From NCBI GenBank assembly GCA_028687715.1, contig JAQTZP010000001.1, positions 39,876-103,875 on the forward strand: a stretch of 64,000 bases of DNA, read 5' to 3'. The notes beneath the pieces were generated by a model. The model saw only the letters and a program-made list of their open reading frames with translations, had not been told where the DNA came from and did no database searches. The stretch comes from Minisyncoccota bacterium (lineage in GTDB: Bacteria; Patescibacteriota; Minisyncoccia; Minisyncoccales; GWA2-38-27). Every line of letters begins with the position of its first letter. The first letter of the stretch is position 1. The position numbers were made by a program, and so were the translations under genes. Shown here piece after piece: positions 9,782 through 19,801 of the stretch.

Positions 9782-9866
9782 GGGTGCGTAGTCCCGTACG
9801 GCGCGGGAGCGGTCTGTAAAACCGTCGTCATTACTGGCCCAGGTGGTTCGACTCCACTCGCACCCA
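9782..9866 (+). tRNA. tRNA-Tyr (anticodon GTA), long variable arm, no encoded CCA
   Basis: Hand fold: acceptor GGGTGCG/CGCACCC; anticodon stem GCGGT/ACCGT with loop CTGTAAA; T arm GGTGGTTCGACTCCAC. Confidence 0.8.
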
Positions 9867-10679
9867 ATGTTATCTAAAAATAGATTAGAAAAATTATATA
9901 AAAGCGGTTTATCTATAAAAAGAATATCTGAAATTGAAAATTTCCCTTACACCACTATAAAATATTGGATGAAAAGATATAATATTCCCCGCAGATCGAG
10001 AGTGGAGGCATGTTTTTACGGATATTGGGGTAAAAACAAAGAATTTTCAAGAATCCCAAAGCTTTTAACTATCGATAAAATCAAGGATTTTTATTATCGG
10101 AAGGGTTATAGTGTTAAAGAAGTAGCGGATTTACTTGGTTATTCTCCAAAAAGCATATATAGATTTATGGATAGAAATGATCTGAAGAGAAGGTCAAGTC
10201 GCGATACAAACAATCTTATTTTTATAAGGAAAAAACCTTCTTTCACTATTAAAAATGATTTAAAATTAGAAGAAGAAAAATTAAAATTAGCTGGTGTTAT
10301 GTTATATTGGGCAGAAGGAGCTAAGGATTTAAAAGAAAGAGACTGGAATACTGTTGATTTCGCAAATAGCGATCCCGAAATGATAAAAATTTTCTTAAAA
10401 TTTTTACGTGATATTTGTGGCGTCTATGAAAAACGATTAAGGGTTCAGTTATATTGTTACGTTGATCAAGATATAAATTTTTTAAAAAATCATTGGAAGA
10501 CAACTACAGGTATATCATTAGAACAATTTAATAGACCTTATATAAGAAAAGATTTTTTACCTGAAAAAAAGGGGAAAATGAAATTTGGAGTAGTTCATAT
10601 TAGATATTCGGATAAAAAGTTATTTCTACAAATAAAAGATTGGACAAGACAGTATTTGAATAAAATGTTGCCGATGTAG
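9867..10679 (+). CDS. HTH-containing LAGLIDADG-like (homing-endonuclease-like) protein filling the tRNA-Tyr/tRNA-Thr spacer
   Basis: The ATG immediately follows the tRNA-Tyr discriminator base, and the stop lies inside the first 10 nt of tRNA-Thr. Two HTH-like segments are present (LSIKRISEIENFPYTTIKYWMKRYNI; YSVKEVADLLGYSPKSIYRFM). KLAGVMLYWAEGAKD resembles a LAGLIDADG motif. Confidence 0.5.
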   Translation: MLSKNRLEKLYKSGLSIKRISEIENFPYTTIKYWMKRYNIPRRSRVEACFYGYWGKNKEFSRIPKLLTIDKIKDFYYRKGYSVKEVADLLGYSPKSIYRFMDRNDLKRRSSRDTNNLIFIRKKPSFTIKNDLKLEEEKLKLAGVMLYWAEGAKDLKERDWNTVDFANSDPEMIKIFLKFLRDICGVYEKRLRVQLYCYVDQDINFLKNHWKTTTGISLEQFNRPYIRKDFLPEKKGKMKFGVVHIRYSDKKLFLQIKDWTRQYLNKMLPM

Positions 10680-10741
10680 TTCAGTGGTAGAACACGTTCT
10701 TGGTAAGAACGAGGCCGAGAGTTCAATTCTCTCCATCGGCT
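10670..10741 (+). tRNA. tRNA-Thr (anticodon GGT)
   Basis: Acceptor GCCGATG/CATCGGC; anticodon stem CGTTC/GAACG with loop TTGGTAA; T arm GAGAGTTCAATTCTCTC. Confidence 0.85.
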
Positions 10742-10767
10742 CTTAATAAATTAAATTCCTTAAAATT

Positions 10768-10929
10768 ATGGCAAAAAGAAAACCATTTGTTAAACTTCAG
10801 TGTCAGGAATGCAAAAGAATAAATTATTTTACTCATAAGTCAAAAAAAGCAGATGAGAAGAAATTAGAGATAAAGAAATTCTGCAACTGGTGCAGGAAGC
10901 ACACAGTCCACAAAGAGGCGAAAAGGTAA
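10768..10929 (+). CDS. rpmG: Ribosomal protein L33 (53 aa; below ORF-track cutoff)
   Basis: Hand translation: MAKRKPFVKLQCQECKRINYFTHKSKKADEKKLEIKKFCNWCRKHTVHKEAKR*. Confidence 0.85.
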   Translation: MAKRKPFVKLQCQECKRINYFTHKSKKADEKKLEIKKFCNWCRKHTVHKEAKR

Positions 10930-10949
10930 AATAAAATAGAATTAAGCTT

Positions 10950-11237
10950 ATGAAAAGAGATAATAAAGAAATAAAAATCGGTGCCTGTGGGATTTGTTGT
11001 GAGAGTTGTGGTCTCTACACGAGGGCTGTTTGTTCTGGCTGTAATAAAACCGAAGAAGGCGTGAGATTCTTGAAAAGCATCAATGCTAATTGTCCTATTT
11101 TGGAATGTGCTGTGAGAAATAAGATAGATGTGTGCTCAAGAGATTGTGAAAATTTCCCGTGTGATAAATTTAGAGATTGGCCATTGGCTAAAGAATGGCT
11201 CGAAATGTATAAAGAAAGATTAAAAAGAAAGAAATAG
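10950..11237 (+). CDS. Small Cys-rich protein, DUF3795-like (putative metal/Fe-S binding)
   Basis: GACGICCESCGLY...CSGC...CPILECA...CSRDCENFPCDKF cysteine pattern. The family name is recalled from memory. Confidence 0.5.
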   Translation: MKRDNKEIKIGACGICCESCGLYTRAVCSGCNKTEEGVRFLKSINANCPILECAVRNKIDVCSRDCENFPCDKFRDWPLAKEWLEMYKERLKRKK

Positions 11238-11283
11238 GTTGTCCCACCGTTAGGAAAAATCCGTTATAATAAAAACAGAATTT

Positions 11284-11793
11284 ATGCTTAATAAATTCGT
11301 CAAGGGGAAAGTTTATGTTTTTATTGATGCCGCTAATACGTTTTATGCCCAGCGGACTTTAGGATGGAAAATATCTTACGAAAAGTTAATGCGATACTTT
11401 AAAAAAGAATGCGGAGAAGATACCAAATGTTTTATTTATGCCGCCTATGACGAAAGCAAACAAGCCGAACAGAAGTTTTTAGATATGCTGGATATCAATG
11501 GCTATATTTTACGTACTAAAGCCATTAAGAAAATCCAGATAAGCGCTAACCGCGATAAACATAAGGGCAACTTGGATATGGAGTTAGCTTTTGAAATGGT
11601 GGATTTAACAGATAAATATGATACAGCGATATTGATGTCTGGAGATAGTGATTTTTCTGTCCCCATTGATAAGATTAAAAAGAGAAGAAAACAAATCATT
11701 GTTATATCCACACGAGGGCGGATTTCCCGTGAACTTTTGGAAAGAGCAAAGTATATTGATTTACGTAAATTAAGAGATGAAATTTCGCAATAA
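11284..11793 (+). CDS. NYN-domain (LabA/DUF88-like, PIN-like fold) protein
   Basis: KVYVFIDAANTFY...LDMELAFEMV...AILMSGDSDF...IIVISTRG matches the NYN/LabA acidic-residue pattern. Confidence 0.7.
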   Translation: MLNKFVKGKVYVFIDAANTFYAQRTLGWKISYEKLMRYFKKECGEDTKCFIYAAYDESKQAEQKFLDMLDINGYILRTKAIKKIQISANRDKHKGNLDMELAFEMVDLTDKYDTAILMSGDSDFSVPIDKIKKRRKQIIVISTRGRISRELLERAKYIDLRKLRDEISQ

Positions 11794-11837
11794 AAAAATC
11801 TGGAGCTGTCCCGAAAGACACTCCAGAGTGCTATCAC
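11792..11837 (-). ncRNA. Candidate ~45-nt RNA: consensus promoter followed directly by a UUCG-capped hairpin and U-tract, convergent on the NYN gene
   Basis: Minus strand: TTGACA (11872-11867), 17-nt spacer, TATACT (11849-11844). Hairpin 11827-11799 is UCUGGAGUGUCU-UUCG-GGACAGCUCCAGA. U7 lies at 11798-11792, overlapping the NYN stop codon. Confidence 0.45.
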
Positions 11838-11940
11838 ATTATCAGTATAACAAACCTCAAAAAGCCTGTCAAGGCCAGTTGTCCACTTTTTAAATTAAAA
11901 AAATTATCCTGTTAAAGGTCTGCCTTAAAATCCCTGTATT

Positions 11941-12003
11941 GAATTGAAAAAATTCTGCAAGTGGTGCCGGAAGCACACGGTGCATAAAGAAACGAAGAAA
12001 TAA
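11941..12003 (+). repeat. Second copy of the rpmG 3' end (coding potential retained: ELKKFCKWCRKHTVHKETKK*)
   Basis: Aligns with 10868-10929 (EIKKFCNWCRKHTVHKEAKR*), differing mostly at synonymous or conservative positions. Confidence 0.8.
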
Positions 12004-12011
12004 TAAATGAT

Positions 12012-12353
12012 ATGAGTATAATAGCTGAATACAATCCAGACTTGGCTTTGAGAAATATATCTGAGTTTAAGTCGGGAGACAGAAAAGAAGAAGAATGTAT
12101 TCCAGAAAACCTTAAAGGAGGTGAAATATACCCTTTCTTAAAGAAAGGCCAAAGGCATTACTGGTTAGAAGGTGAAATACCTTTAGTTGAAACAAAAGGA
12201 GAAGGAAAACTTTCAAGACCCAAAGCCAGTATAATAGTTTTAGAAGCTACTTACTTTCTGAAAGATAAAGAAGTTTGGACAAGAGGAAAGTATAAAGTTA
12301 TAGAATTTTTTAATGATGATCAGATCCATTTTGAGGGATTTGAAAAACTTTAG
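12012..12353 (+). CDS. Hypothetical protein (113 aa); its last codons run into the third rpmG-3' copy
   Basis: ORF only; no motif recognised. Confidence 0.4.
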   Translation: MSIIAEYNPDLALRNISEFKSGDRKEEECIPENLKGGEIYPFLKKGQRHYWLEGEIPLVETKGEGKLSRPKASIIVLEATYFLKDKEVWTRGKYKVIEFFNDDQIHFEGFEKL

Positions 12354-12392
12354 AAGTGGTATAGAAAGCACACGGTTCATAAAGAAGTAAAT
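12345..12392 (+). repeat. Third, decayed copy of the rpmG 3' end
   Basis: gaaaaactttagaagtggtatagaaagcacacggttcataaagaagtaa aligns to copy 2, but with an in-frame stop and both Cys codons lost. Confidence 0.65.
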
Positions 12393-12414
12393 AATTATAC
12401 TAATTTATCAAAAT

Positions 12415-12852
12415 ATGAGATTAATGATCTGCGGCAGTATGTATTTTGCCAAAGAGATGCTTAAAGCAAAGAAAACATTAGAAGAGCTCGGCCATGAAGT
12501 TAGGGTTCCTTCAGATGTTTATCAGTGTATTGAAAATCCTGATTTAAATATGGATTTAGAATACTGCTTGGATACTGATATTGATAAGAAGGATTTTAAT
12601 CAAGTGGCGGAAAGCGAGGGGATAGTAGTTTTGAATTATCCCAAGAATAATATCATAGGATATATAGGAGGAGCTTCTCTTATGGAAATAGGGATTGCCA
12701 GGCATCTTGGAAAGAAGATATTTTTATTGTATAATCCTCCAAGCGAGAAGGATTTAAGATACGCGCTTGAGGTAAAGGTATCAAGGCCTATAATACTTAA
12801 TGGAGATTTTAAAAACATTAATAATTATATAGATAATCGGGTCCGTAGTTAA
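12415..12852 (+). CDS. Nucleoside 2-deoxyribosyltransferase-like small Rossmannoid protein
   Basis: MRLMICGSMYF...GIVVLNY...GGASLMEIGIARHLGKKIFLL pattern. The 3' end overlaps tRNA-Trp by ~14 nt. Confidence 0.45.
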   Translation: MRLMICGSMYFAKEMLKAKKTLEELGHEVRVPSDVYQCIENPDLNMDLEYCLDTDIDKKDFNQVAESEGIVVLNYPKNNIIGYIGGASLMEIGIARHLGKKIFLLYNPPSEKDLRYALEVKVSRPIILNGDFKNINNYIDNRVRS

Positions 12853-12909
12853 ATGGTATAATTTTGGTCTCCAAAACCGAAGTTCTCTGTTCGAATCAGA
12901 GCGGACCCG
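12839..12909 (+). tRNA. tRNA-Trp (anticodon CCA)
   Basis: Acceptor GGGTCCG/CGGACCC; anticodon loop CTCCAAA; T arm CTCTGTTCGAATCAGAG. Confidence 0.85.
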
Positions 12910-12917
12910 CAGCACGA

Positions 12918-19147: not shown

Positions 19148-19154
19148 CTAAAAT

Positions 19155-19270
19155 ATAATAAAATAGCCAAAGACAATGGGTTTGCGCATCGCTTTAAATC
19201 CCATCGAGGCAGTTTATTCCCTTTTTATTTTAAAGGGAGATAGAGCTGTCTCGGACAGCTTTTTAAATTT
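19155..19270 (+). promoter_or_regulatory. Structured rplJ leader with terminator-like hairpin (L10-leader-like autoregulatory element)
   Basis: Hairpins ATGGGTTT...AAATCCCAT and TCCCTTT...AAAGGGA, then GAGCTGTC-TCG-GACAGCTTTTT immediately before the rplJ ATG. Confidence 0.45.
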
Positions 19271-19801
19271 ATGGCTTTAAAAAAAGAGCAAAAACAAAAA
19301 ATAATAGAGAAGATAAAGAATGTTTTAGAAAAACAGAAAATAGCAGTTTTTGTAAGCATAGCTGGACTAAAAACAAAAGATGTCTCTGATTTGAGAAAGA
19401 AGCTGAAAGAGAAGAACTGCGTTTTTGGCGTTGTTAAGAAAACCCTTCTAAATATCGCTTTTGATAAGAATTTTGAAGCAGATATCAAGAATTTAAAGGG
19501 GGAGATTGCCCTAATTTCAGGAATAGATGATGAGATTTCAGCGCCAAAGATTGCTAATAAATTCTCTCTTAATAATAAAAACTTAGAGATTTTAGGAGGC
19601 GTTTTCAATAACGAGTTTATAGGAAGAGAAAAGGTAATAATTCTGGCAAATATCCCTTCAAAACAAGAACTTCTGGCTCAGCTTGTTGGAACCATCAAGG
19701 CGCCGATATCCAATTTTACCAATGTTGTTTTTTCAAATATTAAAGGTCTTGTTTATACATTAAATTCCATTAAAAATAATAAAGAGGCGGTAAATCAATA
19801 A
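19271..19801 (+). CDS. rplJ: Ribosomal protein L10
   Basis: Position directly upstream of L7/L12; KIAVFVSIAGLKTKDVSDLRKKL pattern. Confidence 0.85.
   Translation: MALKKEQKQKIIEKIKNVLEKQKIAVFVSIAGLKTKDVSDLRKKLKEKNCVFGVVKKTLLNIAFDKNFEADIKNLKGEIALISGIDDEISAPKIANKFSLNNKNLEILGGVFNNEFIGREKVIILANIPSKQELLAQLVGTIKAPISNFTNVVFSNIKGLVYTLNSIKNNKEAVNQ

Follow-up and report, generated by a model that had tools for sequence, protein, structure and literature searches.

How did a ribosomal protein gene come to be followed by two further copies of its own 3′ end, with different accessory genes between them? The question was raised by a 64,000 nt stretch of a Minisyncoccota bacterium genome (assembly GCA_028687715.1, contig JAQTZP010000001.1, positions 39,876 to 103,875 of the forward strand), which we call the window and in which all positions are counted from the first nucleotide. 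The gene is rpmG, which encodes ribosomal protein L33. The original prediction, made from the sequence of the window alone, had proposed that the last codons of rpmG occur three times in direct orientation because elements carrying a surrogate rpmG 3′ end in their attachment site (attP) had integrated here repeatedly. After comparison with related genomes, metagenomes and viral contigs, we consider it likely that site-specific integration at the rpmG 3′ end by Xer-like tyrosine integrases took place repeatedly, and that tandem accretion produced the stack seen in the window.

Through the repeat search, one direct repeat family of three members was found in the window, at 10873-10938 (the reference), 11947-12012 (77% identical) and 12342-12407 (65%). 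A degenerate 32-nt core pattern matched three times in the 64 kb, at these same three copies, where shuffled sequences are expected to give 0 matches. With a profile made from 81 functional rpmG ends, copies 1, 2 and 3 scored E = 1e-13, 3e-16 and 2.5e-5, respectively. The same layout was present in four independent assemblies (SRR22315504/06/07/08, other runs of one study), and therefore the triplication is not an assembly artefact; the three direct copies were thus borne out by repeat search, core pattern, profile and assemblies alike. Exact-protein look-ups with L33 and Def gave no match, and the look-up with the NYN protein gave matches from the same organism only. The parts of the locus are:

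10670..10742, + strand: tRNA-Thr(GGT), found by ARAGORN and Rfam; left backbone neighbour of rpmG
10768..10929, + strand: rpmG, intact, ribosomal protein L33 of 53 aa (Pfam PF00471, E = 2e-19)
10867..10929, + strand: copy 1, the functional core of 63 nt, made of the final 20 codons and the stop; a site of attL/attB type
10882..10898, + strand: core positions 16-32 of copy 1, the likely strand-exchange region, with the imperfect inverted repeat TTCTGCA-N5-TGCAGGA
10950..11237, + strand: cargo open reading frame (ORF) of 95 aa, Cys-rich and DUF3795-like (Pfam PF12675, E = 2e-6)
11255..11892, + strand: NYN module, made of an NYN-domain nuclease gene (11284-11793; Pfam NYN E = 7e-27; PADLOC NYN) and a conserved non-coding stretch 3′ of it
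11794..11872, − strand: candidate antisense small RNA of ~45-50 nt, promoter at 11872..11844, hairpin and T-run at 11838..11794
11893..11940, + strand: arm found with the arm profile, element-derived (P arm of an attR-type site), abutting copy 2
11941..12003, + strand: copy 2, a displaced, coding-competent rpmG end which together with the arm forms an attR-type site
12012..12353, + strand: cargo ORF of 113 aa, from a small-protein family of Patescibacteria
12354..12395, + strand: copy 3, a decayed displaced rpmG end covering core positions ~19-63, with no arm
12415..12852, + strand: ORF of 145 aa, weakly nucleoside-deoxyribosyltransferase (NDT)-like (Pfam PF05014, E = 6e-4, below the cut-off)
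12839..12910, + strand: tRNA-Trp(CCA), right backbone neighbour, which lies 0-110 nt past rpmG in empty sites

Copy 2 still reads ELKKFCKWCRKHTVHKETKK followed by a stop codon, an open L33 C-terminus, and most of its differences from copy 1 are at third positions, just as had been claimed. Since the copies differ mainly in this way, each was once a working gene end. The decay described for copy 3 was also confirmed: it reads ..L, a stop and then KWYRKHTVHKEVNNY, with the first Cys codon changed to the stop, the second changed to Tyr, and the original stop gone. Its extent had to be corrected. The first ~12 nt (12342-12353) are native C-terminal codons of the 113-aa ORF, whose family ends ...HFEGFEKL, so the unambiguous rpmG homology in copy 3 begins at ~12354 (core position ~19).

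The locus was then compared with its relatives. An L33 protein scan of the species-representative genomes of GTDB gave 80 loci from Paceibacteria/Nealsonbacteria-like metagenome-assembled genomes. They share the backbone trmD / tRNA-Tyr / tRNA-Thr / rpmG / tRNA-Trp / def / PCMT / yceG, and the order of tRNA-Thr and then rpmG is kept in nearly all of them. tRNA-Trp was found in 70 loci, and the distance to it from the rpmG stop was 0-110 nt in 40, 111-399 nt in 2 and 400-3100 nt in 28. Empty sites with the window's own downstream gene order were revealed in three genomes (L031, L044 and L059). The 63-nt profile detected additional copies on the + strand in 12 loci of the 80; all of them lay between rpmG and tRNA-Trp, and three of these loci contained three copies. 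The genes between copies varied by genome and included a MjaI-type restriction enzyme with an N4/N6 methylase, a trypsin-like protease, NUDIX, NYN, HicA/HicB, GNAT and DUF5674; this variability held across the 12 GTDB loci and another 56 loci from metagenomes. The boundaries of the restriction-modification (R-M) unit were constant in several hosts (1653-1664 nt). The comparison of loci and counting of copies that had been suggested as a check thus gave empty sites, variable cargo and extra copies. The view that rpmG is an unusual target did not survive, as it is documented in Streptococcus (PMC5357655, PMC4701971) and insertion is common here (28 of 70 species).

Two side observations concern the surroundings of this hotspot. 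A DUF5674 gene (116 aa) and a 112-aa partner recur directly after the rpmG end or a copy in seven loci (L029, L050, L054, L038, L041, L121 and L141); this pair usually starts 2 nt past the stop codon, with no detectable extra rpmG copy. Among genomes of the same gene order (L007, L008, L027, L028, L050 and others), the spacing from tRNA-Trp to def ranges from ~130 nt to ~4.6 kb, which indicates a second variable region just 3′ of tRNA-Trp.

The extra copies carry a mark of their own. Their rpmG homology has its upstream limit at TTGAAAAAATTC (Leu-Lys-Lys-Phe), and immediately 5′ of most of them lies an arm of about 45 nt which is not rpmG sequence, reads roughly AGATCTGCCnTATAAAATCCGTGTATTGA and is common to cassettes of unrelated cargo. 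At copy 2 of the window it reads AAAGGTCTGCCTTAAAATCCCTGTATTGA (11913-11941), almost identical to an integrase-adjacent arm in locus L142. An arm profile, built solely from loci found by other criteria and with the window excluded, gave a single significant match in the 64 kb, at 11893-11939 (E = 4e-4). Through a metagenome scan for the arm/core junction, the 56 loci mentioned above were obtained, all at the rpmG locus wherever the contig was long enough, with tRNA-Trp downstream in 47 and full rpmG upstream in 27; they contained up to 4 copies, with a successive spacing of 76-4544 nt. The same junction scan gave 0 matches in viral contigs, and a degenerate core scan of viral contigs gave one provirus, already found otherwise. 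Left of core positions 16-32, a non-coding variant specific to the elements, AAGAAGTGATG ('KK*C'), is often present in arm-type copies, and this with differing cargo. The units were originally described as a copy followed by a gene. The conserved end, the arm, lies upstream of the copy, so that the unit is 'genes + arm + copy'.

A second arm type was also noticed. It has 29 nt, ACACCAATGACCCTGAGyCGnnTCGAAGG, and occurs in a 76-nt mini-insert with a surrogate rpmG end in two different genomes (L085 4084-4160; L057 3595-3670). A second family of elements may have left its smallest possible remnant here.

The same data bear on a simpler origin, in which slippage or unequal crossing-over duplicated native sequence locally, the copies then diverged and the intervening genes are native as well. 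The direct copies in one orientation would suit this origin, and so would the locus L045, where two copies have homology extending upstream and no arm is present. Relatives of the same gene order, however, have rpmG beside tRNA-Trp with nothing between; the intercopy genes differ by genome; the third-position differences of copy 2 show that it evolved as a coding gene end; and the arm is foreign to rpmG. Moreover, the NYN module of the window is 92-93% identical in nucleotides to that of L041, whereas the rpmG genes of this pair are only 75.7% identical. Arm and core are 54-66% identical between these two loci and belong to different arm subtypes. The NYN module has therefore moved horizontally and been joined to different element ends. 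Local duplication with no variable content, named beforehand as the observation that would count against integration, was looked for in the relatives, and variable content was found instead. We regard local duplication as highly improbable.

The recombinase search tied to rpmG-3′-like sequences, which the original prediction had also suggested, revealed an Xer-like tyrosine integrase beside arm and copy in relatives. In L133/L103, genes for a 307-aa tyrosine recombinase and a 100-aa helix-turn-helix (HTH) protein are located directly 5′ of the arm, the copy and tRNA-Trp. This recombinase is Xer-like but stays far below the cut-offs, with 137 bits for the XerC model and 125 bits for XerD against ~330, and 41.5 against 265 for the integron integrase. 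It has many homologues in Patescibacteria, a large family in which a closer clade stands at 60-78% identity. The order integrase, HTH, arm and copy was found with all five integrases of at least 63% identity whose surroundings were fetched (P0001, P0003, P0004, P0011 and P0016), and the clade integrases lie within ~500 nt of arm and copy (5/5). In the last four of these, about 100 nt containing the arm are followed by an rpmG-3′ copy at E = 1e-12 to 1e-17. tRNA-Trp comes directly after the copy in P0001, P0003, P0004 and the second locus of P0011 (L145); in L145 it begins 2 nt past the copy's stop and was uncalled by ARAGORN as the contig ends inside the tRNA, and the longer locus L144 ends at the copy. 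No rpmG core was found near the more distant homologues (P0042, P0084, L155-L167), which comprise two at 52-53% identity and 13 IMG/VR relatives at 44-54%, and only the clade at 63% identity or more therefore has this target specificity.

The integrase-bearing elements are on contigs of 32-58 kb and also encode very large polyvalent proteins, an amidase/endolysin, an HNH endonuclease and a recombination exonuclease; one of these elements has an IMG/VR entry as a viral contig of 33 kb. In L146, the copy consists only of L33 residues 36-53 and the stop; it is in frame, has stop codons before it, and is flanked by the integrase and HTH genes on one side and the phage exonuclease and HNH genes on the other, with no tRNA-Trp. 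An attP carrying a surrogate gene end would look like this. The central claim of the original prediction, repeated integration through such an attP, is thus supported by the empty sites, the variable cargo, the arm, the integrase link and L146. The L133 integrase was also considered as a housekeeping Xer protein because it has many ~50% homologues; this assignment was rejected for its consistent pairing with the HTH gene, the arm and phage genes.

Where in the copy the strands were exchanged was addressed with core positions 16-32, which correspond to window positions 10882-10898 (copy 1) and 11956-11972 (copy 2). This segment contains the inverted repeat TTCTGCA-N5-TGCAGAA, formed by Phe-Cys...Cys-Arg codons; of 81 functional rpmG ends, 11 have it without a mismatch and 22 others with a single one. 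Comparing copy 1 and copy 2 position by position gave no crossover, as third-position differences run throughout; because these mask a crossover in a plain comparison, a rare-variant test was needed, and it was carried out on 27 distinct loci that are phylogenetically related. At positions 16-32, 11 of 22 rare copy 1 variants also occurred in the arm-type copy of the same locus (shuffle mean 2.0; 0/500 shuffles reach 11). Elsewhere there was no such excess, with 2/13 at positions 1-15, 1/11 at 33-50 and 3/14 at 51-63. In L085 and L057, the 76-nt mini-insert brings a new gene end, and the old end is joined at core position 16/17. Among other junctions, window copy 3 starts at ~position 19, and a truncated copy in L041 ends at position 24. 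Considering inverted repeat, variant sharing and junctions together, the crossover is likely to fall within core positions 16-32.

From these observations the following course of events may be proposed. Xer-like tyrosine integrases of one clade, carried on temperate-phage-like elements of Patescibacteria, would use the rpmG 3′ end as their bacterial attachment site (attB), and attP would be made up of the conserved arm of about 45 nt and, after it, a copy of the last ~20 rpmG codons. Strand exchange would occur inside the copy, at core ~16-32 (the Phe-Cys-Lys-Trp-Cys-Arg codons). After integration, element-borne codons would complete the L33 gene, and the displaced native end would come to lie at the far side of the insert with the arm before it and tRNA-Trp after it. 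The attL would consist of host rpmG with the element's surrogate end, and the attR of the arm, the element core from position 1 to ~15 and the displaced host end. Successive integrations, with later loss of most element DNA or capture of integrase-less modules, could then have built the stack of the window: rpmG with copy 1; DUF3795 and the NYN/small RNA module, arm and copy 2; the 113-aa ORF and copy 3; and the NDT-like ORF and tRNA-Trp. With three direct att copies, two bounded units and internal units devoid of integrase, the window matches the layout of tandem accretion and of cis-mobilizable elements (CIMEs). The window units are integrase-less prophage remnants or satellites. The idea that the newest cassette sits beside rpmG fits the decay gradient, but this order is unproven, since accretion can use either attL or attR.

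Several observations weigh against repeated integration as set out here. In the 64-kb window, neither an integrase of this family nor a recombinase motif was detected by tblastn, family HMM (hidden Markov model) or motif scan, in agreement with the earlier statement that no integrase is left at the locus, and the mobility of the window units is therefore unproven. The call of L146 as 'unintegrated' comes from 9 kb of a 32-kb contig, and no attL of an integrase-bearing element was seen in the contig parts read. Copy 3 has no arm. The DUF3795 gene and the NYN module are not separated by an rpmG copy; what lies between them, at 11238-11266, is only a weak arm-like remnant (AGGTTGTCCCACCGTTAGGAAAAATCCGT). 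The NDT-like ORF, which had been taken as the unit following copy 3, is bounded by no copy, so its arrival is not explained by the att model. The crossover position was drawn from 27 loci that are mutually related, and the likeness of copy 1 and copy 2 within a locus is 0.78 compared with 0.74 between loci, a slight excess. In some pairs (L033/L076, ~81% throughout) the R-M cassettes are about as diverged as their flanks, and part of the R-M cassette distribution may be vertical.

A rival reading is that no recombinase was involved and that inserts entered through homologous or homology-facilitated illegitimate recombination on the rpmG and tRNA-Trp anchors, or through 'insertion with long target duplication', with the repeat as a by-product. 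Many inserts do lack a detectable extra copy (the DUF5674 pair, the HTH-endonuclease-like ORFs, NYN in L083), as does the NDT-like gene of the window. The R-M units have ~60-nt flanking repeats like the cases of PMC2853133, and in L016, L048, L076 and L132 the copies are nearly identical in the middle part. Against this reading, the arm before the copies is non-host and common to integrase-bearing elements. Junctions and variant sharing fall within one segment of ~17 nt and do not spread across the homology, and a phage-like contig holds an isolated gene end beside an integrase. Entry without a recombinase is thus improbable in our judgement.

The cargo of the unit between copies 1 and 2 is of composite make-up. 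Besides L041, the NYN module was found at the rpmG hotspot in L083, L086 and L138, and the DUF3795 gene had no homologue at other rpmG loci. Gene calls for these two had been proposed earlier, and both stood in Pfam; the NDT-like call for the 145-aa ORF fell below the Pfam threshold (20.4 against 28.8 bits). At the equivalent place in L041 (1546-1572), upstream of the NYN module, we noticed a truncated rpmG core (positions 1-24). The remnant at 11238-11266 may be an eroded fourth att site, which would make the DUF3795 gene a separate unit.

In the 3′ flank of the NYN gene, the antisense promoter TTGACA-17-TATACT (11/12 matches) is the best promoter-like site of the region, and the hairpin that follows (-17.7 kcal/mol, z = -3.5) ends in T7. 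Promoter and hairpin are kept in L041 and L083, with a compensatory stem change. The predicted RNA of ~45-50 nt, antisense to this flank, could be an antisense regulator or an antitoxin of the NYN nuclease.

The 113-aa ORF has no Pfam domain and belongs to a family that is very widespread and well conserved in Patescibacteria, with >600 homologous clusters at 66-81% identity. Its homologues elsewhere are found in runs of small accessory genes, and in the window it abuts copy 3 with no arm. As a side observation, the genes in these runs are co-oriented, and the spacers repeat AAACAGGTTC[T/G]AACATCGTCC, with a GC hairpin and a T-run after it. Such spacer-motif sites are located at:

L149: 396-542, 1392-1506, 1789-1967, 3241-3364 and 5459-5648
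L151: 3906-4000, 4355-4400 and 6417-6460

To judge from this layout, the runs look like a cassette array with a recombination-site-like repeat of its own. The motif AAACAGGTTC[T/G]AACATCGTCC was not found in the window.

Placed between copy 3 and tRNA-Trp, the 145-aa ORF shares 14 nt with the tRNA gene. Its sole relative among the fetched loci is in L098 (39% identity), placed elsewhere and on the opposite strand. PDB sequence searches with the 113-aa and 145-aa proteins gave nothing useful. Outside the locus, an Rfam ribosomal protein L10 leader was found upstream of the L10 gene at 19149-19274 on the + strand (46.5 bits, gathering score 44).

On the other side of rpmG, an ORF of 278 aa (9843-10679, + strand) lies between tRNA-Tyr (9782-9866) and tRNA-Thr (10670-10742) and overlaps both. 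It contains two HTH domains, and its C-terminal part resembles a LAGLIDADG endonuclease by eye (..LYWAEGAKD..NSDP..). Homologues occupy the tRNA-Tyr/tRNA-Thr gap or the rpmG/tRNA-Trp gap in >15 related loci, and it may be a free-standing homing gene aimed at the tRNA/rpmG cluster. This recurrence could be read to mean that homing by the HTH/LAGLIDADG-like endonuclease family brought the cassettes in, with double-strand breaks at the cluster repaired from insert-bearing templates that dragged them along. Homing, however, leaves neither a target duplication nor a conserved arm, and the cassette-bearing loci often lack the 278-aa ORF. The endonuclease assignment itself was made by eye, as Pfam gives HTH domains only. 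Such an origin of the cassettes has in our opinion very little chance of being correct.

If integrases did build these stacks, the small units (0.08-4.5 kb, ending in arm and rpmG core) need not all be decayed prophages. They might be distinct mini-cassettes which use the integrase of a resident rpmG-targeting phage in trans, a possibility that we regard as rather unlikely but worth stating. It was considered because integrases are rare, R-M boundaries are constant and modules are joined to different arm subtypes; an integrase, or a fragment of one, was present in just one element (L133/L103) of the 56 arm-selected loci. Against it, the R-M units in some pairs are no more alike than their flanks. 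If it were true, an integron-like exchangeable array of R-M, HicAB, NYN with antisense RNA, NUDIX and GNAT genes would stand behind the highly expressed L33 gene in bacteria of the Candidate Phyla Radiation (CPR).

To our knowledge, very little is known about gene acquisition, temperate phage integration sites and engineering routes in CPR/Patescibacteria. What is gained here is a conserved rpmG/tRNA-Trp hotspot that is occupied in about 40% of the sampled species, an attachment-site sequence (arm and 63-nt core) whose crossover is likely to be at the Cys-X-X-Cys codons, a matching integrase clade and a list of accessory and defence genes travelling to the hotspot. An integrase whose attB is conserved across many Paceibacteria is a concrete candidate tool for site-specific insertion where genetics is lacking. 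We found no literature description of rpmG integration in CPR, in a search that was incomplete and is not proof of absence.

Comparable systems are known at other targets and in other hosts. For R-M genes, 'insertion with long target duplication' was described by Furuta et al. 2010 (PMC2853133). Several loci here (L033, L076, L111 and others) resemble those cases, with a type II R-M pair of ~1.65 kb and direct repeats of ~60 nt which are single-copy in empty sites. They differ in that the right repeat has the arm common to integrase-bearing elements, and the window itself contains no R-M genes. Arm and integrase together indicate that site-specific recombination, not an unknown duplication process, explains the R-M repeats.

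Integron arrays and Xer-dependent modules (integrative mobile elements exploiting Xer, IMEX, and pdif modules) share with these units small co-oriented, promoter-poor cassettes with no recombinase, each ending in a recombination site, and the recombinase here is also Xer-like. Unlike in integrons, there is no adjacent integron integrase and no attC-like hairpin. An integron reading was rejected, since arm and core form no stem across the site, folding only into small hairpins of local extent (z = -0.9 to -2.5), and no integron integrase was found. In IMEX and pdif modules the XerC/XerD recombinases of the host act at a dif-like 28-bp site; here the site is in the rpmG gene end, and the recombinase is Xer-like but element-encoded and below the XerC/XerD cut-offs.

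Prophages and islands at the 3′ ends of tRNA and tmRNA genes restore the split gene and leave a displaced fragment, according to the Islander concept (PMC4383910). The likeness is in the surrogate 3′ end, in the regenerated gene and displaced fragment that mark the insert ends, and in tandem arrays at one target; the difference is that the target here is a protein-coding end, whose surrogate must stay in frame and whose copies differ mostly at synonymous sites.

The closest parallel is Streptococcus, in which ICEs (integrative and conjugative elements) as well as IMEs (integrative and mobilizable elements) with tyrosine integrases insert in the rpmG 3′ end, accrete in tandem and include many decayed elements (Ambroset 2016, PMC4701971; Coluzzi 2017, PMC5357655). 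They occur in two architectures, with the integrase beside rpmG or at the opposite end (PMC4701971, PMC5357655), and CIMEs of the ICESt1/ICESt3 family have been described (Pavlovic 2004 and Bellanger 2011, as cited in PMC5357655). Both systems target the 3′ end of the L33 gene with a tyrosine integrase and turn the gene end into direct repeats; in one streptococcal architecture the integrase is also opposite rpmG, and tandem stacks and integrase-less, att-flanked decayed units are found as well. In contrast, the host here belongs to Patescibacteria/CPR, the carriers are temperate-phage-like and not conjugative or mobilizable, the integrase is Xer-like, the target is a fixed rpmG/tRNA-Trp pair, and the units have 0.08-4.5 kb compared with about 10 kb for streptococcal IMEs. 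Integration at the rpmG 3′ end with accretion is thus known from Streptococcus, and what is new is the poorly studied phylum, the phage-like carriers, the Xer-like integrase and the smaller units, which make this a second, convergent case of tandem accretion by elements that target the rpmG 3′ end.

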